Shown: positions 14,697-50,429, numbered from the stretch's first letter. The stretch is DNA of 50,429 nt from a virus (IMGVR_UViG_2663763326_000008:1-50429); one strand, 5' to 3'. The notes: generated by a model not told the origin, from the letters alone. Translations and numbers: made by a program.

Positions 14697-15590
14697 TTAT
14701 TTTTTTGCCTTTTTAGCGGCGAAATACGGCGTCCAGTCACCAGTTTCCAGCGCCTTGGCTTTCAGTTTGTCGAGGTTATTGATTACTGCGCCGTTGCTCC
14801 CCTTAACTGTCGGGGTTGTGGCTGCCGTGGTTTTTGCTTTTGGCATGATTCTGGCCTTAGATTCGATACGTTCCAGCAGACGACCAATTGCTACGGGGTT
14901 GGTAGCTTCTGCCAGTTGCTTGCGCAGTTCAGCGTTGCGACCAAGCGCCAGAACAACGATTTCCGGCTTCTCTGACTCAAACAGGATCGCGTTTTGTGTC
15001 TCGATGGGGATTTCCTCGAGTACGGCCTGTTCTGCTTCCTGATAGCCAGGAACCTTGAGAGCCTTAACACGTTGCTGATATTTGGATAATCGCTCTTGAT
15101 AGGCAGCCTGAAGCTCCTGCTCCTTCTGCTTGCGAGCCATCTCCTGTTGCTGGTACTTGCCGTTATCCTCTGCCCACTTAGCCATGCGTTGCTGGTAGAT
15201 TTCTTCATCGAAACCGATGTCCTCATCATCCAGTTTTGGCATTCGCGGTGGTTGAGTGATTACCGGCTGCTGCTCGACGGGTTTCTGAGACTGACGCATC
15301 AGCTCTTTCAGCTCGCGGTCTTTCTCTTTAATCGTCTTGCGCAGGTGTTTTACCAGTCCATGCTCTGCGCTATCTTCTCTGGTTGGCGAATCCAGCTTTT
15401 CATCACCAAAGTAGAATTCCTGCTCTGATTCGTCGTCATCAGTTTCAGTAGCTTCCTCTGCATCATTGCCGGAGGACTCACTGCCATCTTCTGTTTCGAC
15501 TTCTTCAGCCAGTTCGACATCATCAGGAATCTGCTCTGACGCGTCGGTTTCGATTTCAACTTCTGGTGTGTTTTCTGCCATCTGGTCCAT
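14697..15590 (-). CDS. Scaffolding protein
   Basis: 297 aa, highly acidic N-terminus, coiled-coil-like, between portal and coat genes. Confidence 0.7.
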   Translation of the reverse strand: MDQMAENTPEVEIETDASEQIPDDVELAEEVETEDGSESSGNDAEEATETDDDESEQEFYFGDEKLDSPTREDSAEHGLVKHLRKTIKEKDRELKELMRQSQKPVEQQPVITQPPRMPKLDDEDIGFDEEIYQQRMAKWAEDNGKYQQQEMARKQKEQELQAAYQERLSKYQQRVKALKVPGYQEAEQAVLEEIPIETQNAILFESEKPEIVVLALGRNAELRKQLAEATNPVAIGRLLERIESKARIMPKAKTTAATTPTVKGSNGAVINNLDKLKAKALETGDWTPYFAAKKAKK

Positions 15591-15680
15591 TTGTTACCCC
15601 TGTTTACTCGATGTTCAGCCCATCGGAAGGCAATAGGGTGCCAGGCCTCATAAAGACAGCCATTGCACGTTATGGGTTAA

Positions 15681-17879: not shown

Positions 17880-17880
17880 A

Positions 17881-19296: not shown

Positions 19297-19733
19297 TTTC
19301 CGAATAGAGTGCTCATCGGTGATGTTTCAATCTGAATTGCGCCGCCGTCTTTGCCTGTTAGCTCGTGATCAACCTTGTCGCGCCATTTATCCTTCTGTCG
19401 GTTCTTAAGCCAGAAGATGGCGGCGGTTGTATCAGGCGGGTAATACTTCTCAAGCGGAGTTTCGACAATTCTGTTTTCAATAACACGAATATCGATGTCT
19501 GGAGCCACGAAGCCCATAGCGCGTTGATAAAGACGATCACTAACTTCTGCATCAGCGACGGCCTTACCCTTTTTTATGGACTCTAAAAACTCCGGATATT
19601 CCAATTTCCAATTGTTGATTGTTGCCTCGCTAACTTCAAAGAAGTCCGCGAGTTCGGCGTCTGTATAGCCCAGCAAGCACAGTTTGCGTGCCTGTTCGGC
19701 ATACGCCTCTTGATACTTCGTTGGGCGCGCCAT
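19293..19733 (-). CDS. Terminase small subunit
   Basis: 146 aa, overlaps terminase large start; N-terminal HTH-like region. Confidence 0.7.
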   Translation of the reverse strand: MARPTKYQEAYAEQARKLCLLGYTDAELADFFEVSEATINNWKLEYPEFLESIKKGKAVADAEVSDRLYQRAMGFVAPDIDIRVIENRIVETPLEKYYPPDTTAAIFWLKNRQKDKWRDKVDHELTGKDGGAIQIETSPMSTLFGK

Positions 19734-19735
19734 GT

Positions 19736-19978
19736 TTATGCTCCGGTAGTGAACAGGTCTAACGCTTCCTTCGATTTACGCACCGCTTCGATTGTGCGGG
19801 TCGTGATATCTGAATTAGCGCCGCCTGACTGGAAGTGAATTTTGAATAGCTCAAGCTTCAGCTCGTCAGTGCCAATGAACTGAAATGCTTCTTCTGCGGC
19901 TGCGTTCTGGTTCATGACCAGTTTGTAAATCTCTAGCTGGAATTTCTGTTCTTCAGTCATGGGAATAATCTCTGCCAT
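19736..19978 (-). CDS. Hypothetical protein
   Basis: 80-aa ORF directly upstream of terminase small subunit. Confidence 0.4.
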   Translation of the reverse strand: MAEIIPMTEEQKFQLEIYKLVMNQNAAAEEAFQFIGTDELKLELFKIHFQSGGANSDITTRTIEAVRKSKEALDLFTTGA

Positions 19979-20425
19979 TGTTGGCTCCGTTTATCCGTTA
20001 AAAGGGATATCAGTTAAGTTATCCCGTGTAGGGTATAAGCCATTGTCGAGACCACTCATTGAATGGTCTCTGCAATAACCGATGTCTTTCCATCAGTCCG
20101 CCACCACAAAGAATCTTTTTTGCCATAAGGCTGGAGGTTCATCTTTCAGTGGCTGCCAGTGTTATTTCCCCACTTACTGGCTTGGGTTGTTTCGCTGTAC
20201 TGCCGTAACTGGTTGCCCAGAATAAATTCCGGTTTCATTATCAAGCCCACCCGTAGATAGGCTTTGTAATGAACTGGCTCTTATCTCAACGCAGCCCCTT
20301 ACCGCGCGCCAGATGCTCAACTTCAAGCATCAGCAATGAGATGTTTAATCTGGATTCACTCCAGAAGTGATCACCACCCTGTCTACAGAGCCAGATGTGA
20401 AGGATGATGAGTAAAATTATCGCTA

Positions 20426-21915: not shown

Positions 21916-21991
21916 TGGTGCTGGTTAACGGACTTGAACCGCTACCCATTCGCTTACAAGGCGACTGCTCTACCATTGGAGCTAAACCAGC
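21916..21991 (-). tRNA. tRNA, anticodon tentatively UGU (Thr), CCA encoded
   Basis: Hand-folded cloverleaf: acceptor GCTGGTT/AACCAGC, T-arm AGCGG-TTCAAGT-CCGTT, anticodon loop CTTGTAA; coordinates +/-2. Confidence 0.6.
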
Positions 21992-21996
21992 ATATT

Positions 21997-22071
21997 TGGC
22001 GGGACAGCGTGGACTCGAACCACGATAAGAAGGTTAACAGCCTTCCGTAATGACCTTTATACGACTGACCC
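21997..22071 (-). tRNA. tRNA, anticodon tentatively GUU (Asn), CCA encoded
   Basis: Hand-folded: T-arm CGTGG-TTCGAGT-CCACG, anticodon stem GAAGG/CCTTC with loop CTGTTAA; one acceptor mismatch; coordinates +/-2. Confidence 0.5.
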
Positions 22072-26525: not shown

Positions 26526-26848
26526 AAATACCCTCTCTCACTTAATCGCGCCCACGCTTCGTTAAACTCTTCTCGGGTTGCGCCGGATTTTCTTTCTTCA
26601 AACATCATGCATTCGCTGATGTCTCCCCATGACTTTGGTCGCTTTTCAGCGAACAGATCATCCCATTCGAATACCCAGCGGCCTGATTTTCGGTAGTGGT
26701 AAATGGTCAGCCATGTTGTGCTGTTCGCTGGATACCCATAGAGAACTTCGACTTTTTGATCACGGTCTTTATGCTTCTTCAGCAGGATAAAGCCAGCAAC
26801 CAGCGAAGCTCCGGCAAGAATGATGATTGGAATTTGCCAGTCAGCCAC
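26522..26848 (-). CDS. Hypothetical protein with N-terminal TM segment
   Basis: 108 aa; PIIILAGASLVAGFILL hydrophobic N-terminus. Confidence 0.4.
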   Translation of the reverse strand: MADWQIPIIILAGASLVAGFILLKKHKDRDQKVEVLYGYPANSTTWLTIYHYRKSGRWVFEWDDLFAEKRPKSWGDISECMMFEERKSGATREEFNEAWARLSERGYL

Positions 26849-27139: not shown

Positions 27140-28516
27140 TCATACGTCAGCCCCTTGTGCATATCGTCTGCCACGCGCAGCAGGTGCATTTGATGCTGTG
27201 CAAATCTGTCTGGCTTCATCCTGGTCACATGCAACAAAGTGTCCGTTACAGAACCGCTGGTAAACCGTACCAAGCGAGCCAAAACGGTTTTTCGTCACGA
27301 TGATTTCAGCAAATGGCGCGGCGCTACTGTTCTCGTCATATACCGCTTCCCGATAGAGCATGATGATTGAGTCTGCGTCCTGTTCAATGCTTCCTGAATC
27401 ACGCAAATCTGCGTTTGTCGGGCGTTTGTTTGGTCGCTTCTCAACATCGCGCGAAAGCTGACTTAGGGAGATAACAGGCGTTTTCAGGTCTTTCGCCATC
27501 GCCTTCAGGCTTCCGGAGATGTGAGCAATTGCTAGGTCGTTGCGGTCTGCTTTCGGCTTCTCAATCAGGCCAAGATAATCCGCCATGATTAGAGACAGGT
27601 TTGGATTTTCCTGTTTATGCCGTTCTGCGATTGAGCGTATTTCTTCGACCGATAACCGCGAGGCATCGACTACCCATACATCCAAATCCGCAAGCTGACT
27701 CATGCCGTTAGCAACACGTGCCCAGCACTCGTCATCCATCGATGCAGGATTTCGCAGCACGCTAACCGACATCCTCCCGGCGTTGGCAATGCTCCGCTCT
27801 GCAATCTGCAATGCGCTCATTTCCATTGAGAAAATCAATACTCCGCGCCGGACGTCAGAACCAGGAATAACGCGGCTTGCAACGCCTTCGGCAATCTTCA
27901 GCGCCAGTTCGGTTTTCCCCATACCAGGACGAGCGGCGATTATCACCAGGTCTTCCGCGTTCATCCCTCCGGTGATGGCATCAAGTTCTTCGATTCCGGT
28001 CTTCAGGGTATCGGACTCTTCTCCGTTCCTCAGACGCCTGTCAAGCGTGTCAGTGTAGTCGGTGATGATTTCCCCTAACCGTACAGGTTTAACCTCGTCA
28101 CGGGGCTTTCTGATGGCTGAAAGACGCTTTACAAGTTCATCCATCGCCTGACTCGATGCGTCGATGGTTCCGCTCTGAATTGGTTCACGCATTTCATCCA
28201 TGATTTCCAGCACCAGACGGCGGTGATAGTTATCCGCGACCATTCCGGCATATCCCTTCAGGTTTGCGGCACTCGGGCAGTTTTTGCTGGTCATCAGGAT
28301 TGACGTGAAATGCTCCTCTCCGCACGCCTCGGCAACCATCAGCGCGTCGATTAAATTTCTGTTTCGCGCCTGCTTGCGGATAACCTCGAAGGCTTTCCGG
28401 TAGAGCGGAATTGAAAACGCTTCCGGCTCCAGCGTTGCCAGAACGTCGCTGGCGGTTGGAGTTAATCCACCAATCAGCAGGCCACCGATAACGCTCGCTT
28501 CGATATCCTGTTTCAT
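27140..28516 (-). CDS. Replicative DNA helicase (DnaB family, P22 gene 12-type)
   Basis: 458 aa; Walker A GMGKT, DnaB-like N-terminal domain; overlaps O-like gene stop. Confidence 0.9.
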
Positions 28517-29460
28517 GCAATCCCCCTGTCTGCAAACTTCCCTTCCCGAACTCCCGTTAACGAGTCTTCTCTCAGCAGGTAATCAAAATCAGCCGTCCAG
28601 CCCGTGTCGTTGTCTCCGAAGTAAAACGGCTTGGCCTGATGCACAAACGCCCTGACATACGCCCTGAAACCGTCCACGTTTGGCGTTTTCAGTTGCGGGA
28701 TGATTTTCTTCAGGCGGCGTTTGCGTTTCTCGTTGACCGCAACAGCGTGTGGCAGTCTGTCACCGACTTCGGTGTTGTAGGCGTTCAGGAAGGATTCGTA
28801 GTCGATTCGTTCTGCCTTGCGACGTTCAGGTTTAACCTGCCCATCGCCTCCCCCATTGGGGGGTAGGGGGGTATTATTTATATTCTTGTTAATACCTTCT
28901 TGTTCATGATGTGCGGTTGTTTGTGCGGCTTCATGTGCGCTTTCATGTGCGGCATGTACGCTGAAAGCCGCGCCATTGCTGGCTTCATCATGTGCGGCAT
29001 CATGTGCGGTTGTTTGTGCGGCTTCATGTGCGGGTGAATTGTCCATTTTTTGAGCATATTCATGGTAATTTGTGATGGTGATCACACGACCTTTTTGCTT
29101 CTCTCCATCAATGGTGATCATCCCCTCTTTCACAAAAACCTGAAGCATCCGCTCAACCTGATCACGGCTTGCCGGCTTGCCATGCCTGTCGCATAACTGA
29201 AGACCTAAATCAGCTGCTGTCACAACCAGTTGACCGGGTTGCAGATGCCATTCATGACCTTTGAAATTAGCTTTGTATGGCTTTCTGGCGGCATTCAGGA
29301 GAAGGTTTTCCCACAGGGTGCGAAGATAAACGTCTTTCGCCCATGACTGTTTCAGAATGCTCCGGTACAACGGAATGTAACCAGTTTTCTGGTTCTCCAT
29401 CCTGTTGCTCCTGCGCTCGTGTGCGGCGCTGAAATCGTAGATTTTTGCTGTATTGCTCAT
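28513..29460 (-). CDS. Replication initiation protein (O-like / P22 gene 18-position) with embedded origin
   Basis: 315 aa; central low-complexity [10 protein letters not shown] repeats encoded by DNA iterons; position between cII and helicase. Confidence 0.8.
28880..29040. repeat. Origin iterons (about 8 copies of TGTGCGG-containing repeat) with adjacent AT-rich tract
   Basis: catgtgcggttgtttgtgcggcttcatgtgcg present twice plus further tgtgcgg copies; AT-rich tattatttatattcttgttaata alongside; inside O-like gene as in lambdoid ori. Confidence 0.7.
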
Positions 29461-39851: not shown

Positions 39852-40052
39852 ATGCAACACGAACTACAACCTGATTCACTGGTTGATTTGAAATTCATCA
39901 TGGCTGATACTGGCTTTGGTAAGACCTTCATCTATGACCGGATTAAGTCCGGAGACCTGCCTAAAGCCAAAGTTATCCACGGGCGAGCAAGATGGTTATA
40001 TCGTGACCATTGTGAATTCAAAAATAAGCTCTTAAGCCGCGCCAATGGGTAA
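39852..40052 (+). CDS. AlpA-family HTH protein / putative excisionase
   Basis: 66 aa; HTH-like ADTGFGKTFIYDRIKSGDLP; immediately upstream of integrase. Confidence 0.6.
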   Translation: MQHELQPDSLVDLKFIMADTGFGKTFIYDRIKSGDLPKAKVIHGRARWLYRDHCEFKNKLLSRANG

Positions 40053-40300
40053 AATAGCGGGTAAAATATTTTTCACATCTAAAAAACACCATTCCAATCA
40101 ATCCCCTGCCGCCTCAAGTAGATGTCTGCAGGGGACACCATGAACACTTCTCACTAAGTTCAATTAATTCCATAACTCACTGTTTTAACTGATATCATCT
40201 CCTTATACTCGTCCAGCAAAGTACCATTATTTCTAATGGAATCTATACATCTTTGCGTATAACATTGTGTATAACTGAGTTCGATCTTTTTTCTATACAC

Positions 40301-41476
40301 ATGCTGCTATCTGACATCCAAATAAAAAGAGCAAAACCGAAGGACAAACCCTATACGCTTAACGATGGTATGGGGCTATCACTCCTGATCGACACAGCGG
40401 GCAGTAAAGGCTGGCGTTTTCGCTATCGCTTTGCAGGTAAGCCTAAGATGATTTCCTTTGGCGTATATGGCGATGTGTCGTTGGCACAGGCACGTACCAA
40501 ACGTGATGAAGCGCGTTCGATGTTAGCCAACGGGATAAACCCAAGTGAAGCCAGAAAAGCAGATAAGATTGCTTTGCAGTTCGCGCATGAGAACAGCTTT
40601 GAGTCTGTGGCCAGAGAATGGCACTCATCGAAAAAAGCCACCTGGTCAGAGGGTTATGCAAAAGAGGTTCTCAATTGTATGGAAAAGGATATTTTTCCTT
40701 TTATCGGCCAGCGCCCAATTGAGCAGATTGAACCATTAGAACTGCTAACCGTCCTGCAAAAAATAGAGAAAAGAGGTGCGCTAGAGCAAACCAGTAAGAT
40801 CCGCCGCCGCTGTGGTGAAGTGCTTCGTTATGCTGTTGCCACTGGTAGAGCAAAGTATAATTTTGCACCCGATTTAGCTATCGCACTCAACAAACCTAAA
40901 ACCCAACACTTCCCGTTCCTGACTGAAAGCGAGTTGCCCGAGTTCGTTAATGCTCTGGATAACTATCAGGGCAGTTTAGTTACCAAATACGCCACGCAGC
41001 TGTTGATGCTAACAGGCGTGCGAACAATTGAACTACGTGCAGCGGAATGGGCTGAGTTTGATTTAGATAATGCCTTATGGGAGATCCCCAAAGAACGGAT
41101 GAAGAAACGCCGCCCCCATCTGGTTCCGTTATCAACTCAGGCGATCAATATCCTGAAAAAGCTGCAAGAAATAACAGGGAATTACAGCCTCGTTTTCCCT
41201 GGCCGGAATGACGTCAGTAAACCAATGAGCGAAGCCAGCATCAACAAAGTGATAAAACTACTGGGTTATCACGGTCGGTTAACGGGTCACGGTTTCAGGC
41301 ATACCATGAGCACCATCTTGCATGAGCATGGGTTTGAAAGTGCCTGGATTGAAATGCAGCTTGCGCATGTTGATAAGAACTCTATTCGAGGTACTTACAA
41401 TCATGCGCAATATATTAAAGATCGACAAGTAATGATGGAATGGTACGCTAGCTTATTAAATACGACCTGCTATTAA
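40301..41476 (+). CDS. int: Tyrosine integrase, P4/CP4-57 type (paralog of 1..1158)
   Basis: Start taken at MLLSDIQIKRAKPKDKPY; shares RRRCGEV.RYA..TGRAKYN.APDLA and HGFRH motifs with the first integrase. Confidence 0.9.
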   Translation: MLLSDIQIKRAKPKDKPYTLNDGMGLSLLIDTAGSKGWRFRYRFAGKPKMISFGVYGDVSLAQARTKRDEARSMLANGINPSEARKADKIALQFAHENSFESVAREWHSSKKATWSEGYAKEVLNCMEKDIFPFIGQRPIEQIEPLELLTVLQKIEKRGALEQTSKIRRRCGEVLRYAVATGRAKYNFAPDLAIALNKPKTQHFPFLTESELPEFVNALDNYQGSLVTKYATQLLMLTGVRTIELRAAEWAEFDLDNALWEIPKERMKKRRPHLVPLSTQAINILKKLQEITGNYSLVFPGRNDVSKPMSEASINKVIKLLGYHGRLTGHGFRHTMSTILHEHGFESAWIEMQLAHVDKNSIRGTYNHAQYIKDRQVMMEWYASLLNTTCY

Positions 41477-42406
41477 ATCCAGCATGAAACAAATATGGTG
41501 AGTAATTTGATACTGTTTGTTTTTTGGCAACCCAGGGAAATGCCTTACAGTTGGTTGACTATTGTAATAATAATAGTTAAGACCAATGTTGCTGCCAAAC
41601 TGGGTTGGATGTTGGGGAACAAGATTTGTAATTTGATCTGAAACATCTAAAAATTTTGCAGTAACATTTGAACTTCCTCGTTGCGTGTTGCTTGATACAA
41701 AATGACGAATCCAAACTGTATTCGCTTGTAAATTCTTGAACACCAAATGTGCGGCAACAGCAGAAGGTTGACCACCTCCAAGATCTAGTACCTGGCCAGT
41801 AATTGTATAATCGCCAAATCCTAAGTAATTTTGTCCCACGAATTGATGTGCGTGCGTGAAAAGTTCCGGCCCATTATAATCAGCATTTTTTGCTAACTTT
41901 CTAAAGTTATCGCTAATAATAATTAACTTCGACAAAGGAAGAAGAGCGCACTGATTAGGAAGCATTTTATTATTTAAAACAACATGATAACTAATCAATT
42001 GATTTGTCGCCAACAACTGAATATCAGAGTTGGATAATGATGGATTATCATATAGAAGTGCAACTCGTCTATTTAAGTTAGCATTCAACCAATTATTAAT
42101 ATCATTAATCGTTGTATTGGGCTGAATAAGATATCCAGAGATGATATTATTTTTATTTGTTAATACACTTGATAAATTTTGATTTAAAGTTAAGACGTTA
42201 TTGTGTGAAGAAAAATCTTCCTGATAAGGATTAAGGATAACAATTATGTCAGAATTCCAAACATTTAAACATGTTAATAAATTTCTCGTATTGACGTTAA
42301 TTGGTTCTAAAATTGGTAGCAGACCATTTAGGCTAACTCCCTTCGCAACGAGGTCCCTAAGGCATAATAACTCTGTACTTCTCGCATACAAATATGGGCT
42401 ATACAT
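41456..42406 (-). CDS. Hypothetical 316-aa protein, AT-rich cargo gene (second gene of two-gene operon)
   Basis: Asn/Leu-rich, low-GC codon usage; 21-nt spacing after upstream gene; 3' end overlaps integrase 3' end by about 21 nt; no motif recognised. Confidence 0.55.
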   Translation of the reverse strand: MYSPYLYARSTELLCLRDLVAKGVSLNGLLPILEPINVNTRNLLTCLNVWNSDIIVILNPYQEDFSSHNNVLTLNQNLSSVLTNKNNIISGYLIQPNTTINDINNWLNANLNRRVALLYDNPSLSNSDIQLLATNQLISYHVVLNNKMLPNQCALLPLSKLIIISDNFRKLAKNADYNGPELFTHAHQFVGQNYLGFGDYTITGQVLDLGGGQPSAVAAHLVFKNLQANTVWIRHFVSSNTQRGSSNVTAKFLDVSDQITNLVPQHPTQFGSNIGLNYYYYNSQPTVRHFPGLPKNKQYQITHHICFMLDLIAGRI

Positions 42407-42427
42407 AACTTACAACTCCTGAGGATA

Positions 42428-43309
42428 TCAACAAATTTTAATTTTTACATCCATCAAATTCATGATGAATTCTTTTTGCTTTCTTGATAATGGTGTTGCA
42501 TAACCTAAAACACGTAAACATGCTGGAAGAGAATAAATATAATCCAAAAAAACTTTATCGTTACATCTTTTTTTCATAGCAGAGATAAAGTATTTATTTG
42601 CTATGTTTAATGGCATCTGCATGAATATCTCTTTACAATATTCATAAACCAATCCGTTAGGCATATTTATTTTAGTTGAAGTGTAATCTTCTATTATAGC
42701 TAAGAACTCTTCCTTTCTAAGAACTGAAAACAAGCTGTCACTTTTAATATAATCAATATTTGAATCTGCCTCCTTAATGACACTCAATTGATCTTTTTTA
42801 TTCAAAACCATAACTCCCACTCTGGGGAGATTTAAAGCACAATATTTACTTGCATACTCTGGATGTGTAACTATATACACTTTATCAAAAACATCCAAAT
42901 AATCAGGGGCTTGAGTAATCAACCTTTTTGGTGAATCATACTCTGTCTTAATCTCGTAAGCTGTAGACGTACCATTAAACACCGCAACATCCACTATAGA
43001 GTTTTTAATTGGTAACTCTATGGACGACGAACTTGTTTTTGGGCTGTGCTTACCGAATATTATTTTATTGACAAGTGCTGTCTTATAAACATATTCATTT
43101 CTATAATTCAGACGCAAAAAATCATATAATGATGTAAATAAATCCCTTAGTGAAATCTCATGTTCATTATTATCATTGTTTGAAAACAGTGTTTCATAGC
43201 AGTAAGAATCAAAACTCCCAAATAAATCCGAAATATCCTTACCTTTTGCTAAGGATGAAAAAATGGGGCGACGGAAAAATTTAGCATATTCCTTTTTATT
43301 ATGACTCAT
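42428..43309 (-). CDS. Hypothetical 293-aa protein with PD-(D/E)xK-like nuclease motif, AT-rich cargo gene (first gene of operon)
   Basis: SSIELPIKNSIVDVAVFNGTSTAYEIKTEYD contains E...D...ExK spacing typical of restriction-endonuclease-fold nucleases. Confidence 0.55.
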   Translation of the reverse strand: MSHNKKEYAKFFRRPIFSSLAKGKDISDLFGSFDSYCYETLFSNNDNNEHEISLRDLFTSLYDFLRLNYRNEYVYKTALVNKIIFGKHSPKTSSSSIELPIKNSIVDVAVFNGTSTAYEIKTEYDSPKRLITQAPDYLDVFDKVYIVTHPEYASKYCALNLPRVGVMVLNKKDQLSVIKEADSNIDYIKSDSLFSVLRKEEFLAIIEDYTSTKINMPNGLVYEYCKEIFMQMPLNIANKYFISAMKKRCNDKVFLDYIYSLPACLRVLGYATPLSRKQKEFIMNLMDVKIKIC

Positions 43310-43988
43310 TACTCATACTCTATAAACATCATGCAATTTGATAAGTTATGACGAATTCTCACCATCCAGTTACTACCTGTACATACTAATCAAAAAAAAC
43401 GAGTACGCAAGATACGAAAGTACTTTTCTTGTTCACCAGTTAGCTTACCTTGATCCTCACCAGCGACTGGAAGATAGGTAGCAGTATATGTGGAAACCTT
43501 CCCCTAGCTAGGTCTACAAACGTAGTTTGGGCATTTAGGCTCCACGATTCACGGTTTGACACGGCCTGATATCTGCACATTCGTTTTGATATGCAGCAAT
43601 CGTGAAAAAGGAAAATATACGCTCGACAGACCAAAACGGCACTACACCGCACCCGCCTGCGGTTTTCATATCACTAAAAATTTTCAGCCTGGATTTTTTA
43701 CAAACGATACCGCCAGTCCGTGCCAGTCCTCGAGATGTACTGCGATACAGGAACTGAAAAGAATGAAAAGAAATTCATTTTTTTTCAGTTTTACTGTCCG
43801 TCGAATCTATGGCCTGAATACGCAACTCTATGATATTAAATGGATAATTAATTTTAGGTGTGTGATTTTATGAAGGTTTGTGAAACATGAAGAAGATAAC
43901 CAGTTGAAAAATAATAATTTTATGACCGTATAAACTGAAATCCTGTGTTCAGGTTCCGGGAACAGATCGGCCATTCCCGACGCATACT

Positions 43989-44261
43989 TTACCCATTCTT
44001 TTGCGCAGCCAGCAGCAACTTTAAAGCCTTTTCCCGTTCCTCGGGTGGAATTGCATCAATCAGCTCTTTAACCCTTCCCTGCCCGTTCAGCGCGCTTGGA
44101 CTAACGGAATGGGAGAAAGCAACATTCATCACAAACGAGTGACCGCACTCCACATTAGAGCAATAGCAGTACACATCGTACAGTTGTGGGTGTTTCCTGT
44201 TTGTTTTACCTATCCGTGCTACTGCCTGACATGTGGGGCAGTACATTCTCATCATCTTCAT
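43989..44261 (-). CDS. ogr: Ogr/Delta-family zinc-finger late-gene activator
   Basis: CPTCQ...(22 aa)...CYCSNVECGHSF matches the CX2C-X22-CX4C Ogr/Delta pattern of P2/P4. Confidence 0.75.
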   Translation of the reverse strand: MKMMRMYCPTCQAVARIGKTNRKHPQLYDVYCYCSNVECGHSFVMNVAFSHSVSPSALNGQGRVKELIDAIPPEEREKALKLLLAAQKNG

Positions 44262-44327
44262 CGTTCTGTGCCCTATACTGTTGCCCGCCAGAAGAAGGGA
44301 TTTGGATCCCTACCTCTTGTTCTGAAC

Positions 44328-44517
44328 GTGTAACACTGGTAACACGTGTAACGCTATTGATTTAAAAGGATTTAATCTGTTACCAGTTAGCAAAATCAAG
44401 AGGTAACGCGTGGTAACACACCATTTTTTGTTACCTCTGTTACCAGTCAGTATTTTTGACTGGTAACACTGAAGAACCGCATCAGTAACGGGTGTTACCT
44501 CTGTTACCAGTGTTACC
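44328..44517. repeat. Iteron array (about 12 copies of TGTTACC / GGTAACA in both orientations), crr/ori-like
   Basis: ctgttaccag, tgttacctc, tggtaacac, gtgtaacac repeated at short irregular spacing immediately downstream of alpha-like primase gene. Confidence 0.6.
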
Positions 44518-44543
44518 TCATAAAAATAAGACTCACGCGATAA

Positions 44544-47231
44544 TCACTCAGGTTCAGCGCTTCCCAGTACCTGTGTATTGAACTGGTACACACGTTTAAG
44601 CCCTATTTCTGGCAGGCGAATGCTGTTTTGCGTCCGGCCATCTTCACCGGGTTTCAGCCAGCCCGCGTCCACACACAACCTGGCCACCTTACGCGAGTCA
44701 AATCCCTTACAGATCTCCTTCCAGCCTGACGGGAGAACGTAGAACGTCACAACCGGCTCTGTCACGTTGTCTCCTTTATCGACTTTTCTGAATCCCATCA
44801 TTGAAACAGGCCGGTTCCTGTCGTCATTCCAGTCAGCAAACCGACTGAACTGATTACGCGTCATGAAGTCCCGAACCTGTTCAAGTGCCGCTTTATCTTC
44901 CTGATTAGCTGTATGGCCCCGGTCAGCCATCCATGCAGCCAGACAGCTTTGAGCGGCACGAAAGGCCTCTCCCTCCGGCCATCCTGTGATGCCCGCTTTT
45001 GTGGCCAGCTCCCCGGCCATCGCAACCAGAGCAAAACGGGTAACAGCCCGGCCAACCTGATTCCCGGCATTTTCCGGCGTCAGCCTTCGGGTATACTCTT
45101 TCAATAAGGCTTTCGCCTGACTGGTCAGTTCCGGCAGATCAGCGGTCAGGCAATACAGCCAGTCGCGGAATGGTGCACCATGATAATGCGCTACGTGCTG
45201 CTCAAGATGCTCAGCCAGGGTTTTCCCGCTACTGAAGCCATGAAGTTCTTCAAACACGCCATACTTGCCCGAATCGCTTGGGATCTGGATCATTCTGACC
45301 TCAACCCCGGCATACGTACGTTCCCCGGCGCTTGCCGCATGCTCTACCAGTGACAGTTCCCCGGTAGACAGAAACAACAGATTCCAGCGGTTGGTTTCCC
45401 TTACCGAACCATCTGTTCTGGCTCTGGCTTTGCCCTGCCCGTTAGCCAGCATATAAGCGATATTTCCCGCCTCCCTGCCGTCAACCTCCCGGATTTCATC
45501 CAGCATCAGCGTGGCATCATTGCGGCGGCTCGCCGTTCCTTCTAAGGCATTCCCCGTCGCCCGCCACGTATGCCAGAAATCTGTTCCACCACATACTGAT
45601 GCAGCCACTTTCATCGTCGTGGTTTTACCGTCTGTGGATTCCCCTTTGAGGTGATAACCTCCACCGCCGATACCAACCAGTTTCAGAAGGGGGGCAGCAA
45701 ATGCCAGACTCACCGCAAAGGCAAGACGGGCATTCTTTATGCAATAACGGCCTATATTTTCACGCCAGCCCTCTGATGTGCCGCTGACACGAAAATCACG
45801 CCCCTGCACACTCGATGTTTGTAAGATGACTGACTGGGCTTCGCGCCCTATCACTTCATCCTGGAGAACGTAAACCCCGCCGTGCCAGCCAGTTTTATTC
45901 ACACAGGTTACTTTTCTGTCCGGTTTACACAGCGAGATATATTCCATCAGGAATGCTCTGGCCATGCCGTTAATGTTGATGTAAGAAAGCCCGTTAACCA
46001 GCAGAACGCGGCGCAGTTCTTCCCCGCTACCGCCCAGCATCTCCATCGGCATTGCCCATTTACGGCTGTTTCCGTTGGTATCTTCCCATTCCAGCAAACG
46101 CCCGTAATTACTTCCATCAGCATCACTGGTGATTGCCGTCACCCGCAACGGACTGCAAATTTTGATATTACGTATCTCTGTATCACCATCAGACTTATTA
46201 ACCAGCTTGTCGTACCACAAATATTCTTTTGTCAGCCGGAACCCTTCTGGTAAACGGGTCTGCCCTTTGCCATGCAGCGTCATTTCTTCACGAAAGGCAT
46301 CTCTCGCCCGTTCTTTCCCCACTTCCTGCCGATAATCATCCCAGTCAGCCTTATGGCGTACCGGAGGGAGCGTTACCCAGCCATCCACCGCTTTGGCGGC
46401 TTTCTCTGCCTGAATACGCCCGGTGTTTTCTTTGCCGTCAGCCAGATCATTATCTCCGGCCAGAATGATCCGGGTTTCCGGCCAGCGTTTTCGGATCTGC
46501 TCCGTCACCTTCAGTAAATTGGTGGCAGCGACAGCCGCCACGATCCATCCTTCAGTCAGCAGACTGACGGTAAGCGCCGTGGCAAAACCCTCAGTGATAA
46601 TCACCTGTTCAGGTGTTTCAGCGGGTATATCGGTCAGGGCAATGAATGCGCCAGACAGCTGGCTACCGGGCAGCAGACTTTTATCCCCGTCAGGATTGAT
46701 AAGCTGGCCACCAGTAATATTCCCGGAAATATCCGTCAAAGGCAGCAGTAATGAACCGGTGGAAAATGTTATTCCGGCCAGATTCAAAGGCTGTGACAGC
46801 AAGGGAAGTGAATACCCGTGTAAGCTCTTATTTGTCAGATAGACCGGCTCACCATTGCAGGACTGCTGTCTGAGTCTGGTATATCGCTCCGCGCCCGCTT
46901 CTTTTCCTGCGGCCTTTTTCCTGGCTGGCAATGCGGGCTTCTCCTGTATTTCTGGTAATGCAAGCGCCTCAGATACCATCCCGGCGACTTCTTTTATCTT
47001 TCTTCCTGTCACCAGACGAACCAGATCAAGACCATCGCCATGACCGCACTGATTACAAAACCACGTCCCTCGCCCCGCTTTATCGTCCAGTCGAAAACGA
47101 TCTTTTCCACCACAGGCAGGGCAAGCCCCATGATGTCCTGCGGACGGTACTTTAATACCTAATGCTGACAGGATATAAGGCCAGCGCCCAATTGCAGCTC
47201 CGGAAATCGTGGATACAGACGGTGTTTTCAC
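44544..47231 (-). CDS. Primase-helicase (P4 alpha-like replication protein)
   Basis: 895 aa; N-terminal zinc-ribbon CPACGGKDRFRLDD...WFCNQCGHGDG, central toprim-like region, Walker A GESTDGKTT. Confidence 0.85.
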   Translation of the reverse strand: MKTPSVSTISGAAIGRWPYILSALGIKVPSAGHHGACPACGGKDRFRLDDKAGRGTWFCNQCGHGDGLDLVRLVTGRKIKEVAGMVSEALALPEIQEKPALPARKKAAGKEAGAERYTRLRQQSCNGEPVYLTNKSLHGYSLPLLSQPLNLAGITFSTGSLLLPLTDISGNITGGQLINPDGDKSLLPGSQLSGAFIALTDIPAETPEQVIITEGFATALTVSLLTEGWIVAAVAATNLLKVTEQIRKRWPETRIILAGDNDLADGKENTGRIQAEKAAKAVDGWVTLPPVRHKADWDDYRQEVGKERARDAFREEMTLHGKGQTRLPEGFRLTKEYLWYDKLVNKSDGDTEIRNIKICSPLRVTAITSDADGSNYGRLLEWEDTNGNSRKWAMPMEMLGGSGEELRRVLLVNGLSYININGMARAFLMEYISLCKPDRKVTCVNKTGWHGGVYVLQDEVIGREAQSVILQTSSVQGRDFRVSGTSEGWRENIGRYCIKNARLAFAVSLAFAAPLLKLVGIGGGGYHLKGESTDGKTTTMKVAASVCGGTDFWHTWRATGNALEGTASRRNDATLMLDEIREVDGREAGNIAYMLANGQGKARARTDGSVRETNRWNLLFLSTGELSLVEHAASAGERTYAGVEVRMIQIPSDSGKYGVFEELHGFSSGKTLAEHLEQHVAHYHGAPFRDWLYCLTADLPELTSQAKALLKEYTRRLTPENAGNQVGRAVTRFALVAMAGELATKAGITGWPEGEAFRAAQSCLAAWMADRGHTANQEDKAALEQVRDFMTRNQFSRFADWNDDRNRPVSMMGFRKVDKGDNVTEPVVTFYVLPSGWKEICKGFDSRKVARLCVDAGWLKPGEDGRTQNSIRLPEIGLKRVYQFNTQVLGSAEPE

Positions 47232-47638
47232 AGCAGCACCTCCTGACCTTCCGGCTTCACAAATTCAAAACCTTCGGGTAGTTCGCCATCAGGTGCTCCG
47301 AAAATAATATCCCGGTAAACCTCACGCATCTCTGTGACACCAAAAACTGACAGGCGAATATTTTCTGACATAAAGCCTGGTTTAAGCATTTTTTCCAGTT
47401 TCTCTGCGGCCAGTATGCAACCAGCATCAGCCCCAAACTCATTCACCCACGGCATTTCAATATGGTAAATAATATTACTCACCACTTTTTCGTGGGAGAG
47501 TTCTATTCGTTCGCCATCTTCAATATAAACAGGTTCATTATGAACACGCACCATTAAGGAAATGAATGCATCAGCAATGTAGTAGCGTAAGACTGCTGTT
47601 CGTAAAGCATGCGCCTTTAAATTTTGATTATTATTCAT
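47228..47638 (-). CDS. Hypothetical protein upstream of alpha (operon)
   Basis: 136 aa; ATGA-type overlap with alpha start. Confidence 0.4.
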   Translation of the reverse strand: MNNNQNLKAHALRTAVLRYYIADAFISLMVRVHNEPVYIEDGERIELSHEKVVSNIIYHIEMPWVNEFGADAGCILAAEKLEKMLKPGFMSENIRLSVFGVTEMREVYRDIIFGAPDGELPEGFEFVKPEGQEVLL

Positions 47639-47867
47639 CGCGCATCACTCCCTTAATTGTGCTGGTTTCCTTAACAACGCCATCCAGTTGTTCGGCAATA
47701 CAGGCCACTAAAGCCGCAGCGCCTTCCGCTGAAACAGTTCTCGCTCCATTCACTGTGGGCACGGACAAGACCTCTGCAAGAAACTCACTGGCCAGTGCCG
47801 CCCGTAACAGACGACTCTCCCCCTGTTCACTCAATATGCAGCCTTGCTTAAAATTCATGGATTTCAT
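47631..47867 (-). CDS. Hypothetical protein
   Basis: 78-aa ORF overlapping next gene. Confidence 0.35.
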   Translation of the reverse strand: MKSMNFKQGCILSEQGESRLLRAALASEFLAEVLSVPTVNGARTVSAEGAAALVACIAEQLDGVVKETSTIKGVMRDE

Positions 47868-48496
47868 GCAACCACCTCCCCGGCTCTTTTCACAGGGATA
47901 CGGGCAGCAAAGCTCAGGATAAATTCAGTGGCAAGTTTAAGGCGTGCAGCATGCTCGCATTCTGCGATTACACGCACAGGGCGTGGACGGGCATCACGGT
48001 CTGTACGGCGGACAGCCAGAAAGACAAAGGTAAATTCAGGGTGAGATAAAGCAGGGACTGTAGCCATAATGGCAACCTCCTTCAGATAGCGGGTAACGCT
48101 ACCACCGGAGTTCCTACGCTCATGGGTGGTAGCCCAGACGGGGGTAGGAATACCGGCTCTGAAGGATACCGGCCAGCCCGAAAGCTGCCCCGCCTGGACT
48201 ACCATAATTCTGATGATGTGGCGTAAAAAATAAAAAAATACAATCAGCCACCACACCATAAATTTTAGGTGAGTCAAAGCTGCGACACAAAAAAACACGC
48301 CTAGCGCGTGTAGTATCGCCTTCAGATAACACGGGTTCCTACGCCCGGCTGCCGATTTTGCGGCAACCTTTAAACTATATCCCGCGCATTCCTGGTGAGG
48401 CAAGAAATTTATAACCGAAAACTGATCATTGCCTGGATTAATTAACGCTGGCATGCTTAAGCCTCTGCTTAAAAATAGTTCTTCATTTTTCCTGAT

Positions 48497-48528
48497 GCTG
48501 TAAACGAGACCCGCCTCTGAGCGGGTCT
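48497..48528. terminator. Putative terminator hairpin downstream of capsid gene
   Basis: agacccgc-ctctga-gcgggtct perfect 8-bp stem followed by ttctgt; directly after capsid stop. Confidence 0.35.
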
Positions 48529-48541
48529 TTCTGTCGCTAAG

Positions 48542-49546
48542 TCAATCCGCAAACGTCAGGGTGCACTCATCAACAGCCGCGTACAGTTCAGGTTCACCGA
48601 GTGCATAACCTTCATTGCGCAGGTAGGAATGCACGTATTCACTGCTTTCATCATCAAACTCAGCACGAAACCAGCGTGTTATCGCCTGAGTGTAAATATG
48701 CAGATTATCCAGCGTCGTTACTGCCAGACGCTTACCCGGCATAAACGGGGGAATAAACGCAAAGCGGCCAGCAACAGAACTTGTAGCCATCTGTGCCGCA
48801 TTCACATCAGACGGGCGGTCTGCGGCATTAAATAACTTCAGGCGTTGATGTGCTGCCAGCTCTGCCCCAACCAGTACAACCAGACGAGGATCTTCACGAA
48901 ACTGCTCAGCAATAAGCTCTGTAATCAGATGGTTGGCCAGAGCATCAATATTTTTCCAGGTGCCAGTCTCTCCCAGAGTGACAGGCTCAGAGATGATTTG
49001 CTTTCCGTTCCCGTAGGCTTTCGCCAGTGCATGCCAGCCAATATTGACATCCTCGCCTTTTTTATTGATTTCCGGGTTTGTAGTATTTGCAATCGACACA
49101 CCGTTGAAACCGACCCGCAGCATGTCCAGCGCATATGCCTGGGCAAAAAAGCTCTCAACCGTTTTCTCAAACTCATCCGGCACGCCGGTATGGTAAATAT
49201 GAGACATATCGGAATAGCTGATCCGGGCGCAGGTATCCGTCTCTGTCAGAAAGAACTCCGTACCATTGATTGCCATTTTTTTGTGGAAACGGCCACCATC
49301 CACACGTCCGGTATACAGTTCACTGGCACCAATATTGACGGCATTACCTGACACGGCGTTAACATCACGTAGGGTAATATTTTTAATAAGCCACCCGGAT
49401 TCCAGAATTGAGGTACGCAGTATATTTTCAGTAGGTTCGCTTAATGCAAAGCGTCTGTTTGATTCTTCCTGATAGTTAGTGCCAGTGACGAATTTATTAT
49501 GATAACGACGTGCTGCGTCCGGCCTTTCAGTTTTGAAGGCATACAT
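48542..49546 (-). CDS. Major capsid protein, P2 gpN-like
   Basis: 334 aa; VGFNGVS, EDPRLVVLVGAEL and LDNLHIYT resemble P2 gpN AGFNGVK, EDPDLVVIVGRQL, LENLSIYY from memory. Confidence 0.65.
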   Translation of the reverse strand: MYAFKTERPDAARRYHNKFVTGTNYQEESNRRFALSEPTENILRTSILESGWLIKNITLRDVNAVSGNAVNIGASELYTGRVDGGRFHKKMAINGTEFFLTETDTCARISYSDMSHIYHTGVPDEFEKTVESFFAQAYALDMLRVGFNGVSIANTTNPEINKKGEDVNIGWHALAKAYGNGKQIISEPVTLGETGTWKNIDALANHLITELIAEQFREDPRLVVLVGAELAAHQRLKLFNAADRPSDVNAAQMATSSVAGRFAFIPPFMPGKRLAVTTLDNLHIYTQAITRWFRAEFDDESSEYVHSYLRNEGYALGEPELYAAVDECTLTFAD

Positions 49547-49568
49547 AGTTTTTCACCTTTTTAAGTAT

Positions 49569-50429
49569 TTAAGAAAAGATTTTATTTTTGTACTCAGTAA
49601 CCAGATTGTATTTCATTACATGCTCAACATAATCCCGGTCACTTACGACTGAACGTAATACATAATTATCTGCTCGATAGTACTCCCTGTAAGCCATAGC
49701 TCTTGCCATTCCACCGTTATTTAATACATAACGATCAGTTGGAACGCTACAACGACTAATAATTTCACTCACGGAATCAGATAAAGACTTGAGTGCATCA
49801 GTAATAAATTTAATATCACGGACAACGTCACTGTCATTAAATACAGAAATAAAATCAGCAGGGATCTGGCCGGATTGAGGAAATATATTCAGTAAACGCT
49901 TATCGATTCCCTTCCCAATGTAGTTTCCTTCATCGGCCAGTACTCCCGGCAAAAGCTTGATCGTGCTCAATCGACTATGTTGTTCATTCAACCGGGAAAC
50001 AGCCAGATGGTAATACCGTTCAGCATCCGCTCGTTCAGCATGCCCCATTTTATTCGTTTTGGCTTCAGCAATGCTACTGACGCCGTTTTTTGAGAATGTG
50101 CTTTTCCATGCAACTTCCGCATTTGTCACTTCACGCTGCCGGAAAGATAACTCTTCCTCTTCCTGACGACACAACTGGGCATAACGGCTCAGGAGCAGGT
50201 TGATCTCATTCGCCACAGTTTCCGTATCAGGTACTGTTAACCCCGTAAGTGAATACAGCTTTTCACCTTTAGCTCGCAGCTTATTCAGTGAATATATTTC
50301 AATAATACGCACAATACAGGCCGTGTCGCTATGAGTCTCTTTAAATGATCTTACTTTGTAACTATCTAACACCGACACATGTTCGTTCTTAATTGATGCC
50401 AATTTCTTCTTAAAAACATTGTCAACCAT
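49569..50429 (-). CDS. Putative capsid scaffolding protein (P2 gpO-position)
   Basis: 286 aa directly upstream of gpN-like gene on same strand (P2 gpO is about 284 aa); no sequence match confirmed; ATG at last base of window. Confidence 0.4.
   Translation of the reverse strand: MVDNVFKKKLASIKNEHVSVLDSYKVRSFKETHSDTACIVRIIEIYSLNKLRAKGEKLYSLTGLTVPDTETVANEINLLLSRYAQLCRQEEEELSFRQREVTNAEVAWKSTFSKNGVSSIAEAKTNKMGHAERADAERYYHLAVSRLNEQHSRLSTIKLLPGVLADEGNYIGKGIDKRLLNIFPQSGQIPADFISVFNDSDVVRDIKFITDALKSLSDSVSEIISRCSVPTDRYVLNNGGMARAMAYREYYRADNYVLRSVVSDRDYVEHVMKYNLVTEYKNKIFS

Follow-up and report, generated by a model that had tools for sequence, protein, structure and literature searches.

The window analysed here is a 50,429-nucleotide stretch of viral DNA (IMGVR_UViG_2663763326_000008:1-50429), and its final part, positions 40126-50429, is an integrated satellite that is missing only its last ~0.85 kb, comprising an AlpA-type regulator gene and attR. 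The complete element can be seen in an identical copy in E. coli SA186, where it is an 11.0-kb island running from tRNA-Arg (argW) to dsdC and flanked by perfect 18-bp direct repeats; downstream of argW, SA186 has the same sequence as the window from 40126 on. A first-pass annotation, made from the sequence alone, had placed an alpha-type primase, an iteron array and an Ogr/Delta activator beside P2-type capsid and scaffold genes, and had read this as a capsid-encoding satellite, a P2-like phage with a swapped replication module, or a decayed mosaic. The Ogr/Delta, iteron, primase, capsid and gpO-position features were all re-found in their places on the minus strand. The prophage lying upstream of the satellite in the window is P22-like. 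The features are as follows.

40126..40140, plus strand: left att core CTGCAGGGGACACCA, at the 3' end of tRNA-Arg/argW and at the junction of P22-like prophage and satellite
40298..41476, plus strand (opposite to the rest of the island): P4-type tyrosine integrase (Pfam Arm-DNA-bind_3, 3.7e-26; Phage_int_M, 2.7e-33; Phage_integrase, 2.2e-26)
41456..43309, minus strand: cargo genes of the sce7725 and sce7726 families (PGAP names), in a stretch of 31-40% GC
43612..43789, minus strand: ESSI-2-type cos, with the 16-nt core GGCGGGTGCGGTGTAG at 43642-43657
43989..44261, minus strand: Ogr/Delta-type zinc-finger late-gene activator, 90 aa, single domain (Pfam Ogr_Delta, 5.1e-14)
44320..44531, no strand assigned: iteron array immediately 3' of the primase gene, putatively the replication origin, with GGTAACA/TGTTACC in both orientations
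44544..47231, minus strand: replication protein, 895 aa (Pfam Zn_Ribbon_Prim, Toprim_3 and DUF927)
47228..47867, minus strand: two small genes, 136 aa and 78 aa (PHROG 5991 and PHROG 38507, function unknown), between the immunity region and the primase gene
47864..48454, minus strand: ORF called 'Icd-like/Ash' (Pfam Phage_ASH, 3.1e-32)
48122..48380, minus strand: P4/P1-type antisense-RNA immunity region (Rfam)
48122-48209, minus strand: C4/cI-type antisense RNA (Rfam C4, 81.1 bits; gathering 45)
48290-48367, minus strand: isrK-like RNA (Rfam isrK, 68.9 bits; gathering 50)
48328-48380, minus strand: a1/b1 target (Rfam c4-a1b1, 43.8 bits, just below the gathering value of 46.7)
48542..49546, minus strand: major-capsid-protein homologue of the P2 family, 334 aa (Pfam Phage_cap_P2, 9.5e-67)
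49569..50429, minus strand: 286-aa ORF in the gpO position, always adjoining the capsid gene

Past the end of the window, the SA186 sequence (L001) holds a 75-aa AlpA-type gene (26548-26775; PHROG 2790 'excisionase and transcriptional regulator', 3.2e-11), whose counterparts in relatives are annotated or scored as AlpA, followed by 485 nt of non-coding DNA, attR (core TTCCTGCAGGGGACACCA at 27260-27277, the same core as the left copy) and then dsdC. The integrase adjoins tRNA-Arg in SA186; in the E. coli R12 copy, int lies upstream of alpA and on the same strand. Annotation, Pfam, PHROG and tblastx with ESSI-2 detected no portal, terminase, tail or lysis gene in the complete SA186 island, and likewise no protease, head-tail connectors, TerS or TerL of its own; a P2-like full gpO scaffold and GPA replication genes were also not found by annotation or ESSI-2 tblastx. 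The capsid gene is thus the sole phage morphogenesis gene of the island, and in a whole-genome tblastx of ESSI-2 against it, the matches are the capsid gene, ogr and cos only. The idea that the window holds part of a complete P2-like phage whose replication module was exchanged for an alpha-type one, its other genes lying beyond the window end, is refuted by this flank, and we give it virtually no credence; the SA186 flanks hold no complete ordinary P2-like prophage either. A cryptic remnant of a P2-like prophage that has retained its capsid gene is very improbable as well. Such decay could be read from the IS1, ISEc23 or IS3 insertions that some copies bear and from the lack of a resident helper in most carriers, but it is contradicted by perfect att repeats, by genes that are all intact (dN/dS 0.13-0.23), and by a compact architecture with an exact cos core in five genera and no other phage gene remnants. 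Because the island is bounded by att sites, is devoid of portal, terminase, tail and lysis genes, and keeps its genes intact under selection, both readings fall and the element is a satellite, as the first of the three original options had it.

The replication protein was called alpha-type, and this holds for its N-terminal part: in comparisons with P4 proteins made one at a time, the identity of residues 1-317 to P4 alpha is 38% (E 2e-49). No similarity to P4 alpha is seen in the C-terminal half, which carries DUF927. The protein as a whole matches the DNA primases of PHROG 1139 (4.5e-185). The iteron array, also claimed from the start, lies in the 282 nt that separate the primase stop from the Ogr start; nine of the 15 exact copies of GGTAACA/TGTTACC in the window lie within 44338-44517, and the total of 15 compares with 3.7 expected for the whole window and was reached in none of 100 shuffles. 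Upstream of the primase gene, the Rfam matches define a P4/P1-type immunity region. At least the 5' two-thirds of the Icd-like/Ash call are doubtful, because these RNA genes lie inside the ORF. A sigma-70-like promoter (48403-48374) and a terminator-like hairpin (48311-48295) are pattern matches that do not rise above chance for the region. The 136-aa and 78-aa genes are conserved in relatives, and their products have no similarity to P4 ORF151 or epsilon; for the 78-aa protein and epsilon there is no alignment, and no island protein has a Derepression Pfam match.

The capsid gene is one of the features that set the island apart from classical P4. It lies 1.3 kb upstream of the primase start on the same strand, and its assignment as a gpN-like gene survives a profile search: the Phage_cap_P2 (PF05125) match scores 225.8 bits against a cut-off of 27 and covers profile positions 16-326 of 327, and the protein also matches the major head proteins of PHROG 70 (1.8e-86) and the solved capsids 7oz4 and 7jw1. 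A link to P2 itself was not supported. The protein is 48% identical over 320 aa to the capsid of Cronobacter phage ESSI-2 versus 25% to P2 gpN, and the nearest capsids among 50,697 phage records are those of the ESSI-2 group (47-50%). Satellite capsids form one clade (99/100 bootstrap), and the gene is intact in every satellite compared (dN/dS 0.13).

The gene next to it occupies the gpO position, as first described, and encodes a 286-aa protein that is no gpO homologue; the label of scaffold gene finds no backing in homology of sequence, profile or fold. BLASTP against P2 gpO and the ESSI-2 scaffold was not significant, and the gpO scaffold/protease family (PF05929) gave no Pfam match and an hhalign probability of 1.2%. 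The profile comparison with Sid and Psu that had been proposed revealed no relation to either: Sid gave a BLASTP E of 0.074 over 39 aa and an hhalign probability of 0.6%, and Psu an hhalign probability of 0.3%, with no Psu Pfam match on any island protein. The protein belongs to no Pfam, PHROG or PADLOC family. Its AF2 model (pLDDT 87, pTM 0.80) is all alpha-helical with a long helical hairpin; a fold search found no relatives, and no Sid or Psu chain was among the listed matches. The protein is therefore distinct from gpO, Sid and Psu, and represents a helical family with no detectable relative outside these islands, with only 53 representatives among 1.84 billion proteins. Its gene has a constant position in every relative examined and an intact ORF in every satellite compared (dN/dS 0.23), so that the capsid and 286-aa genes are both under purifying selection across genera. 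Position and co-conservation make the protein a candidate satellite scaffold or size determinant.

A cos site had been sought, and one is present, of ESSI-2 type and not of P2 type. The stretch is 75% identical to the right end and 89% identical to the left end of ESSI-2, whose two physical ends abut in the island cos with an overlap of 15 nt, which the phage record contains twice, once at each end; the break in the record of ESSI2_ev015 (labelled 'genome assembly') falls within the same 16-nt core. Each satellite locus retrieved, from five genera in all, has a single exact copy of the 16-mer, located downstream of Ogr. The P2/186-type cos (GGCGAGGCGGGGAAAGCAC) had no match at up to three mismatches in the window or the complete island. 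Given the absence of a P2 cos, the ESSI-2-type cos in its stead and the capsid identities (48% versus 25% to gpN), the helper is probably an ESSI-2-like member of the Peduoviridae (Seongnamvirus, Quadragintavirus) rather than P2. The Ogr/Delta call was also upheld (Pfam Ogr_Delta, 5.1e-14), and the island protein is 50% identical to ESSI-2 gp32, the regulator adjoining the portal gene. One copy of the P2-type Ogr box (TGT-N12-ACA) lies 56 nt upstream of alpA; the count of this motif is at chance (14 versus 12.4 expected), and the left half of the alpA copy is not kept in relatives. A different dyad, TTCGG-N13/14-CCGAA, is present once per phage: in ev015 it follows or precedes no other copy and sits in the interval from scaffold to terminase gene, and in ESSI-2 it sits in the corresponding stretch, inside the annotated terL start; this dyad of the helper late-promoter region is absent from the island.

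The layout is not peculiar to the window. E. coli, Salmonella, Yersinia, Providencia and Pectobacterium share the gene order AlpA, ~285-aa protein, capsid (and, in some, GPO_N), and the lineage occurs in over 400 complete E. coli genomes (ST131 wherever a label is given) as well as in Salmonella, Yersinia, Providencia, Pectobacterium and Enterobacter. Island size stays at 10-11.5 kb across genera. Relatives that share the layout differ in integrase and have two primase types, that of one Salmonella relative being of the DUF5906 type (770 aa). Salmonella relatives have a Derepression (epsilon-type) gene, which the E. coli island lacks. A gene with the gpO protease domain (GPO_N) is found in the Yersinia, Pectobacterium and Providencia relatives and not in the E. 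coli lineage; the Yersinia protein corresponds to the protease half of the ESSI-2 scaffold (48% identity) and has no scaffolding half. The cargo genes beside cos, the second of which encodes a match to PADLOC PDLC02989 (1.2e-18), are candidate anti-phage defence genes in a variable slot, which in relatives holds Kiwa, retron Ec48, DndB, Shedu or DprA+HAD. A true prophage relative with P2-like phage modules, found in Brenneria, offers a comparison for the island.

The genome thus combines a P4/PICI-style backbone (integrase, AlpA, C4/cI immunity, a primase with a downstream iteron origin, and a cargo slot beside cos) with an ESSI-2-related cos, Ogr and capsid and with the satellite-specific helical protein. 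With P4-like satellites, whose core set we took from SatelliteFinder (PMC10085698), it shares a size of ~11 kb, a P4-type integrase at a tRNA gene, an AlpA/Vis regulator, C4/cI antisense-RNA immunity and an Ogr/Delta activator. It further resembles P4 in the first 317 aa of its primase (38% to alpha), in an iteron array just past the stop, like P4 crr, in a helper-type cos beside a variable defence-cargo slot, and in a probable helper from the P2 family. Unlike P4, it has no Sid, Psu or epsilon and encodes a capsid protein and the novel helical protein instead; the C-terminal half of its replication protein is DUF927; its Delta is a single Ogr domain of 90 aa (P4 Delta has 166 aa); its ogr ends a run of same-strand genes, whereas P4 delta lies in the divergent sid-delta-psu operon; and its cos is ESSI-2-type, not P2-type. 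ESSI-2-like Peduoviridae share the identical cos core, the capsid (47-50%) and Ogr (50%) with the island, but they are full phages of 29-31 kb with portal, terminase, full-length gpO scaffold, tail, lysis and GPA replication genes. The island measures 11.0 kb against 28.8-30.6 kb for the helper-type phages, or ~0.36-0.38 of such a genome; the P4 and P2 genomes measure 11.6 and 33.6 kb.

Gram-negative PICIs such as EcCICFT073 (PMC6092414, PMC10111431, PMC10085698) have int, alpA, pri, an origin directly 3' of pri, mostly unidirectional genes, a size of 10-20 kb, a helper cos and no terS, and often a lone major-capsid homologue that is counted as a 'capsid morphogenesis' core component. The island has the same gene set, namely int, alpA, pri and a 3' origin within 10-20 kb and no structural or lysis genes except the capsid homologue. 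Its capsid is P2-family and paired with Peduoviridae, whereas the PICI capsid genes for which a family is given belong to the lambda E family, with lambdoid helpers (11capE), and EcCICFT073 has a gene for a head-decoration protein as well. Ogr/Delta and immunity through C4 RNA are features of P4 and not of PICIs, and in the island a conserved helical partner gene joins the capsid gene, as does the gpO protease domain in relatives. Like the capsid-forming PICIs (cfPICIs), the island encodes its own capsid protein; cfPICIs, however, encode portal, protease, head-tail connectors, TerS and TerL and borrow only tails, and the island has none of these. No description of P4- or PICI-like satellites bearing a P2 capsid was found in the full-text literature that is open without subscription.

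We consider it rather likely that the element is a helper-dependent satellite whose capsid protein and helical partner make small heads or redirect their assembly, with portal, terminase and tail coming from an ESSI-2-like helper. With a capsid gene of its own, a partner and an ESSI-2-type cos, small heads are therefore probably made or reshaped differently from those of classical P4. We infer the route of induction and the timing of expression as follows. Infection by an ESSI-2-like phage (most carriers hold no such prophage) would derepress the satellite, which would excise through integrase and AlpA and replicate from the iterons, and its Ogr homologue would cross-activate late genes. The alpA-286aa-capsid operon would then supply capsid protein and a scaffold-like helical partner, which may assemble small shells sized for 11 kb, or bias assembly towards such, using the helper portal. 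Helper terminase would recognise the satellite cos and package one genome per head, with head completion, tail and lysis also coming from the helper. In Yersinia, Pectobacterium and Providencia, the gpO protease-domain gene would complete the shell kit; the E. coli lineage would use helper gpO.

A satellite capsid gene need not serve the satellite's own packaging, since the EcCICFT073 homologue c1499 is dispensable for transfer and has no phenotype (PMC6092414), and that element is packaged in full-size heads (PMC6092414, PMC6893505). Together with the capsid genes without known role in 21 of 29 reference Gram-negative PICIs (PMC10111431) and the proximity of the island to defence cargo, this precedent favours a function in interference or immunity only, in which the capsid homologue, with or without the helical protein, would poison or decoy helper head assembly or otherwise protect the host, and the satellite would travel in normal helper heads. 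We regard this as quite unlikely: a single, unchanging cos and an island size confined to 10-11.5 kb in all genera agree with the packaging of one unit length per small head; the 33 kb that three copies would take up is more than the helper genomes (28.8-30.6 kb); and strong full-length conservation of a foldable capsid and a protease domain is unexpected for a mere decoy.

A second precedent comes from SaPIbov5, in which the capsid homologue Ccm forms the pentamers of small heads (PMC8569155); elsewhere, the helical proteins Rcm and CpmB compete with phage scaffolds (PMC12409344). Ccm, like the island protein, is a satellite-encoded diverged copy of a helper capsid (23% identical, against 48% to ESSI-2 for the island), and differs in host phylum, capsid lineage and backbone. 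The island capsid gene is always paired with the helical protein and sometimes with a protease. By co-assembly of the Ccm kind, the satellite capsid would take particular positions, such as pentamers, among helper subunits and with the helical protein shift the head to a small T number. Since a protease is missing from the E. coli lineage and a portal from the satellite, helper head proteins must join the same assembly, and at 48% identity mixed lattices may still be possible. We nevertheless think this unlikely, if worth serious attention, as the relatives' complete capsid gene, protease domain and partner exceed the needs of a pentamer supplier, and satellite capsids have long diverged as a separate clade.

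If the small-head reading is right, not all satellites of P2-family phages use a Sid/Psu external cage, since a widespread lineage has a private capsid and helical partner; there would also be a tractable E. coli system for the role of unexplained capsid homologues in Gram-negative satellites, a named candidate for a new scaffold or size-determinant family, and a specific helper group predicted from sequence through the invariant cos core. More tentatively, and with our expectation leaning somewhat the other way, the lineage could embody a third strategy of capsid piracy in the P2/P4 world and the missing intermediate between P4 (no capsid gene) and cfPICIs (full head and packaging genes). An ancient Enterobacterales-wide lineage would have captured a helper capsid gene once, turned its product into a shell protein of its own, and paired it with a helical scaffold that arose de novo and, ancestrally, with a stand-alone gpO protease domain; it would make its own small shells on a helper portal, and ESSI-2-like phages would provide no more than portal, terminase, head completion and tail. 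If the small-head reading holds, the mobility of the islands would also matter for phage resistance in clinical lineages, as they deliver varied defence systems beside cos (among them Kiwa, retron Ec48 and Shedu).

Nearly all E. coli carrier genomes are without a resident phage bearing an ESSI-2-type cos, and no helper was therefore identified in situ. The neighbouring P22-like prophage is ruled out as helper by the cos, Ogr and capsid gene, all of which point to Peduoviridae. EcCIMP1, a PICI helped by the P22-like phage Kapi1 (PMC11773190), is another element, of 20 kb and without structural genes. In public data, the IMG/VR matches to the satellite are provirus calls of 16-65 kb, and ~11-kb metagenome contigs gave no sign of free or packaged DNA, two of them (L039 and L040) starting within an additional gene. 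Provirus callers, it should be noted, merge such satellites with neighbouring prophages. The Salmonella 'phage' contig S.Kent 1-2-1, with a 777-aa ORF and a cos match, was considered as packaged satellite and rejected, its first ORF being unrelated to the satellite capsid; we read it as a probable piece of an ESSI-2-like phage, because it ends with the cos match and the same sample gave a contig with an ESSI-2-type capsid.

Many complete Escherichia coli genomes contain a locus with 100% identity to 43900-50429: at least 80% of this stretch is present in 446 genomes, and the match reaches 99% identity or higher in 421. Where a carrier's strain name includes a sequence type, that type is O25b:H4-ST131. 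In strain SA186, the entire element can be read: tRNA-Arg (argW), an integrase, two cargo genes of the sce7725 and sce7726 families, Ogr/Delta, a DUF927 primase, two small genes, an "Icd-like" ORF, a P2-family capsid gene, a 286-aa gene, a 75-aa helix-turn-helix/AlpA-type gene and 485 nt of non-coding DNA, followed by dsdC. Because the tRNA 3' end, TTCCTGCAGGGGACACCA, recurs directly ahead of dsdC, the island is ~11.0 kb long and has clean att ends. The window runs as far as the 286-aa start codon, and beyond it lie only the 75-aa gene, non-coding DNA and dsdC, with no ordinary P2-like prophage in the flank. No portal, terminase, tail or lysis genes belong to the island, and tblastx against a complete helper-type phage gave matches limited to the capsid gene, ogr and one non-coding stretch.

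Another copy of the att core (40126-40140), not part of a tRNA, precedes the left end of the island in the window, and upstream of it lies a prophage whose searched stretch, 9000-20000, shares 96% identity with the P22-like phages phiv205-1 and CUS-3; thus, two elements sit in tandem at argW. The prophage fills 1-40052; its genes include tRNA-Thr and tRNA-Asn (21916-22071), and its last ORF, immediately ahead of the shared att core, is AlpA-like (39852-40052). Provirus calling appears to have fused this neighboring prophage and most of the satellite into one record. Other IMG/VR "viral genomes" of 42-51 kb (L017-L026, from E. coli isolates and one metagenome) have an identical 286-aa gene at, or at most about 570 nt from, a contig end, several of them ending precisely at its start codon, like the window.

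Features of the island within the window
41456-43309, minus strand: cargo pair, sce7725 and sce7726 family; GC 31-40%, lowest (31%) over 42001-43000
43989-44261, minus strand: Ogr/Delta; Pfam 5.1e-14
44544-47231, minus strand: replication protein, 895 aa; Zn_Ribbon_Prim, Toprim_3 and DUF927 domains
48122-48209, minus strand: C4/cI-type antisense RNA; Rfam 81 bits, gathering score 45
48290-48367, minus strand: isrK-like RNA; Rfam
48328-48380, minus strand: a1/b1 target; Rfam
48542-49546, minus strand: capsid gene; Pfam Phage_cap_P2 9.5e-67 over nearly the full profile, PHROG 70 "major head protein" 1.8e-86
49569-50429, minus strand: 286-aa ORF in the gpO position

The first-pass annotation had placed an alpha-like primase-helicase, an iteron array and an Ogr/Delta activator on the same strand as a gpN-like capsid gene lying 1.3 kb upstream, with a further gene in the gpO position. 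The activator, the capsid gene and its neighbor are all where they were proposed to be, and the gpN-like assignment was upheld in a profile search. The "alpha-like" label holds for the N-terminal 317 residues of the replication protein (38% identical to P4 alpha), whereas the remainder is unrelated to alpha. The array downstream of the primase is also borne out: the 282-nt gap between the replication gene and Ogr/Delta is packed with GGTAACA/TGTTACC in both orientations, and nine of the 15 exact copies in the window fall within 44338-44517 (3.7 are expected for the whole window). The three Rfam RNA elements are the P4/P1 style of immunity. All of them lie within an ORF (47864-48454) annotated "host cell division inhibitor Icd-like" (Icd-like/Ash; Pfam Phage_ASH 3.1e-32); for at least the 5' two-thirds, this call may reflect translation of an RNA region and not a true protein. 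They are flanked by a sigma-70-like promoter and a terminator-like hairpin, both consensus or pattern matches only.

A search for the P2 or 186 cos found none at up to three mismatches. The non-coding segment 43612-43789, between Ogr and the cargo, instead matches the extreme ends of Cronobacter phage ESSI-2 (Peduoviridae, Seongnamvirus), as well as several "ESSI2_ev" coliphages and one Yersinia phage. The right (28618-28765) and left (1-45) ends of the ESSI-2 record abut in the island, overlapping by 15 nt, GCGGGTGCGGTGTAG, present at both record ends, a duplication that would be expected of a cohesive-end genome. The ESSI2_ev015 record, labeled only "genome assembly", ends ...GCAGGCGGGTGC and resumes GTAGCGCCG... 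after leftover Nextera adapter, and is therefore broken within the same cos core. In its RefSeq version (NC_049395.1), the transposase adapter (…TCGTCGGCAGCGTCAGATGTGTATAAGAGACAG) occupies 1-48 and opens the public record, and phage sequence picks up inside the core after it. Each of the 36 loci with the exact 16-mer GGCGGGTGCGGTGTAG has a single copy; 34 of them are satellite loci, and the other two are ESSI-2 and the S.Kent contig. Where gene order was tabulated, the copy sits directly downstream of Ogr/Delta. The satellite capsid protein shares 48% identity with the ESSI-2 capsid over 320 residues versus 25% with P2 gpN, its best matches among 50,697 phage records are the ESSI-2 group (47-50%; none at 60% or above), and the satellite Ogr shows 50% identity to the regulator that ESSI-2 encodes beside its portal gene. 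Judged by sequence, ESSI-2-like phages are the presumptive helpers. This cos is present as a single copy in almost all carrier genomes, so the helper would normally arrive from outside.

Beside the cos, one cargo protein matches the PADLOC candidate model PDLC02989 ("cll", 1.2e-18), and relatives have Kiwa, retron Ec48, DndB, Shedu, DprA+HAD, DUF8370+AAA_31 or HATPase genes in the equivalent slot. The slot thus behaves as a defense hotspot, like that next to the P4 cos.

The capsid and 286-aa genes lie upstream of the immunity region, and since the gaps between them and to alpA are only 17-22 nt, the simplest interpretation is a single operon of alpA, the 286-aa gene and the capsid gene, headed by alpA, for which we infer the timing of expression. 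Every capsid and partner gene compared is intact, with dN/dS between the window and E. coli R12 of 0.13 and 0.23, respectively. Across nine genomic contexts inspected in the satellite capsid clade, the module of AlpA, a ~285-aa protein and a P2-family capsid, with primase, Ogr/Delta, cos and cargo next in order, was found in more than one genus. E. coli has it in R12 and, disrupted by IS3, in PO06021; Salmonella has two types, of which one combines a P4-alpha-like DUF5906 primase with a double-length delta; and further copies come from Yersinia ruckeri, Providencia rettgeri, Pectobacterium and metagenome contigs. The Yersinia and Providencia partners are distant homologs of the E. coli protein (26-27% identity; E 2e-24 and 4e-21). 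A Phage_GPO_N gene (169-177 aa) follows the capsid gene in Yersinia, Providencia and Pectobacterium and is absent from Enterobacteriaceae copies; the Yersinia product corresponds to the N-terminal protease half of the ESSI-2 scaffold (48% identity), with no scaffolding half. In a distance-based neighbor-joining tree rooted on gpN as the one outgroup, satellite capsids form a single clade (99/100 bootstrap), with ESSI-2, ev015 and a true-prophage copy from Brenneria outside.

Like P4-like satellites, the island has an integrase, AlpA, a delta activator and immunity by antisense RNA, and its replication protein corresponds to alpha in the primase half; it has no Sid, Psu or epsilon and no P2 cos. 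By structural definition it fits the Gram-negative PICIs (int, alpA, pri, origin 3' of pri, optional capsid homolog, helper cos), a group in which capsid homologs are a recognized yet unexplained component (PMC10111431, PMC10085698). The absence of portal, terminase and connector genes excludes it from the capsid-forming PICIs. Apparently new relative to the descriptions we found are the joining of a P4-style backbone to a capsid lineage of the P2 family, the novel and conserved partner protein, accompanied in some lineages by a separate gpO protease domain, and the probable targeting of ESSI-2-like rather than P2-like helpers. The full-text literature, a corpus with most subscription journals outside its coverage, yielded no account of such elements, and large surveys may have counted them without comment.

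From the observed anatomy, homologies, conservation and cos identity, we propose that an ESSI-2-like terminase would cut and package the island at its cos, that the Ogr homolog would tie it to helper late expression, as P4 delta does, and that the capsid/helical pair, with the protease domain in some lineages, would form small shells or bias assembly toward them. The island/helper size ratio (11.0 kb vs. 28.8-30.6 kb, 0.36-0.38; P4/P2, 0.35) fits unit-length packaging in a reduced head, and three island copies exceed the helper genome length. A serious rival is that the satellite capsid co-assembles with the helper capsid protein, as demonstrated for Ccm (PMC8569155); however, the ancestral set of capsid, protease and partner, with no portal, exceeds what a Ccm-type pentamer supplier needs, and we therefore favor satellite-built shells on a helper portal. 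Purely interfering with the helper is also a serious alternative role for the capsid homolog, because that of EcCICFT073 is dispensable for transfer (PMC6092414).

The sister satellite type in Salmonella enterica (GCA_011443155.1) keeps the ~290-aa protein, the capsid gene and the cos core. Its primase is P4-alpha-like (770 aa, DUF5906) and its delta-like protein is 175 aa long; it also encodes an epsilon-like "Derepression" protein, and its integrase, a different one, comes with a divergent HTH repressor. In E. coli R12, a variant of the satellite with a 98%-identical capsid occupies another att site, in the thrW region next to vat and beside a vat/MarR island, with an integrase upstream of alpA on the same strand and a truncated second integrase at the opposite end; integrase modules have thus been swapped within the satellite family. 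Insertion sequences break some copies (IS1 or ISEc23 in three ST131-type genomes), and an inversion accompanies the IS3 copies in PO06021. In the SA186 locus (L001, 27047-27136), about 620-710 nt past the window end, ~16 GGGCTG hexanucleotide repeats form a run within the non-coding interval that separates the AlpA-type gene from attR.
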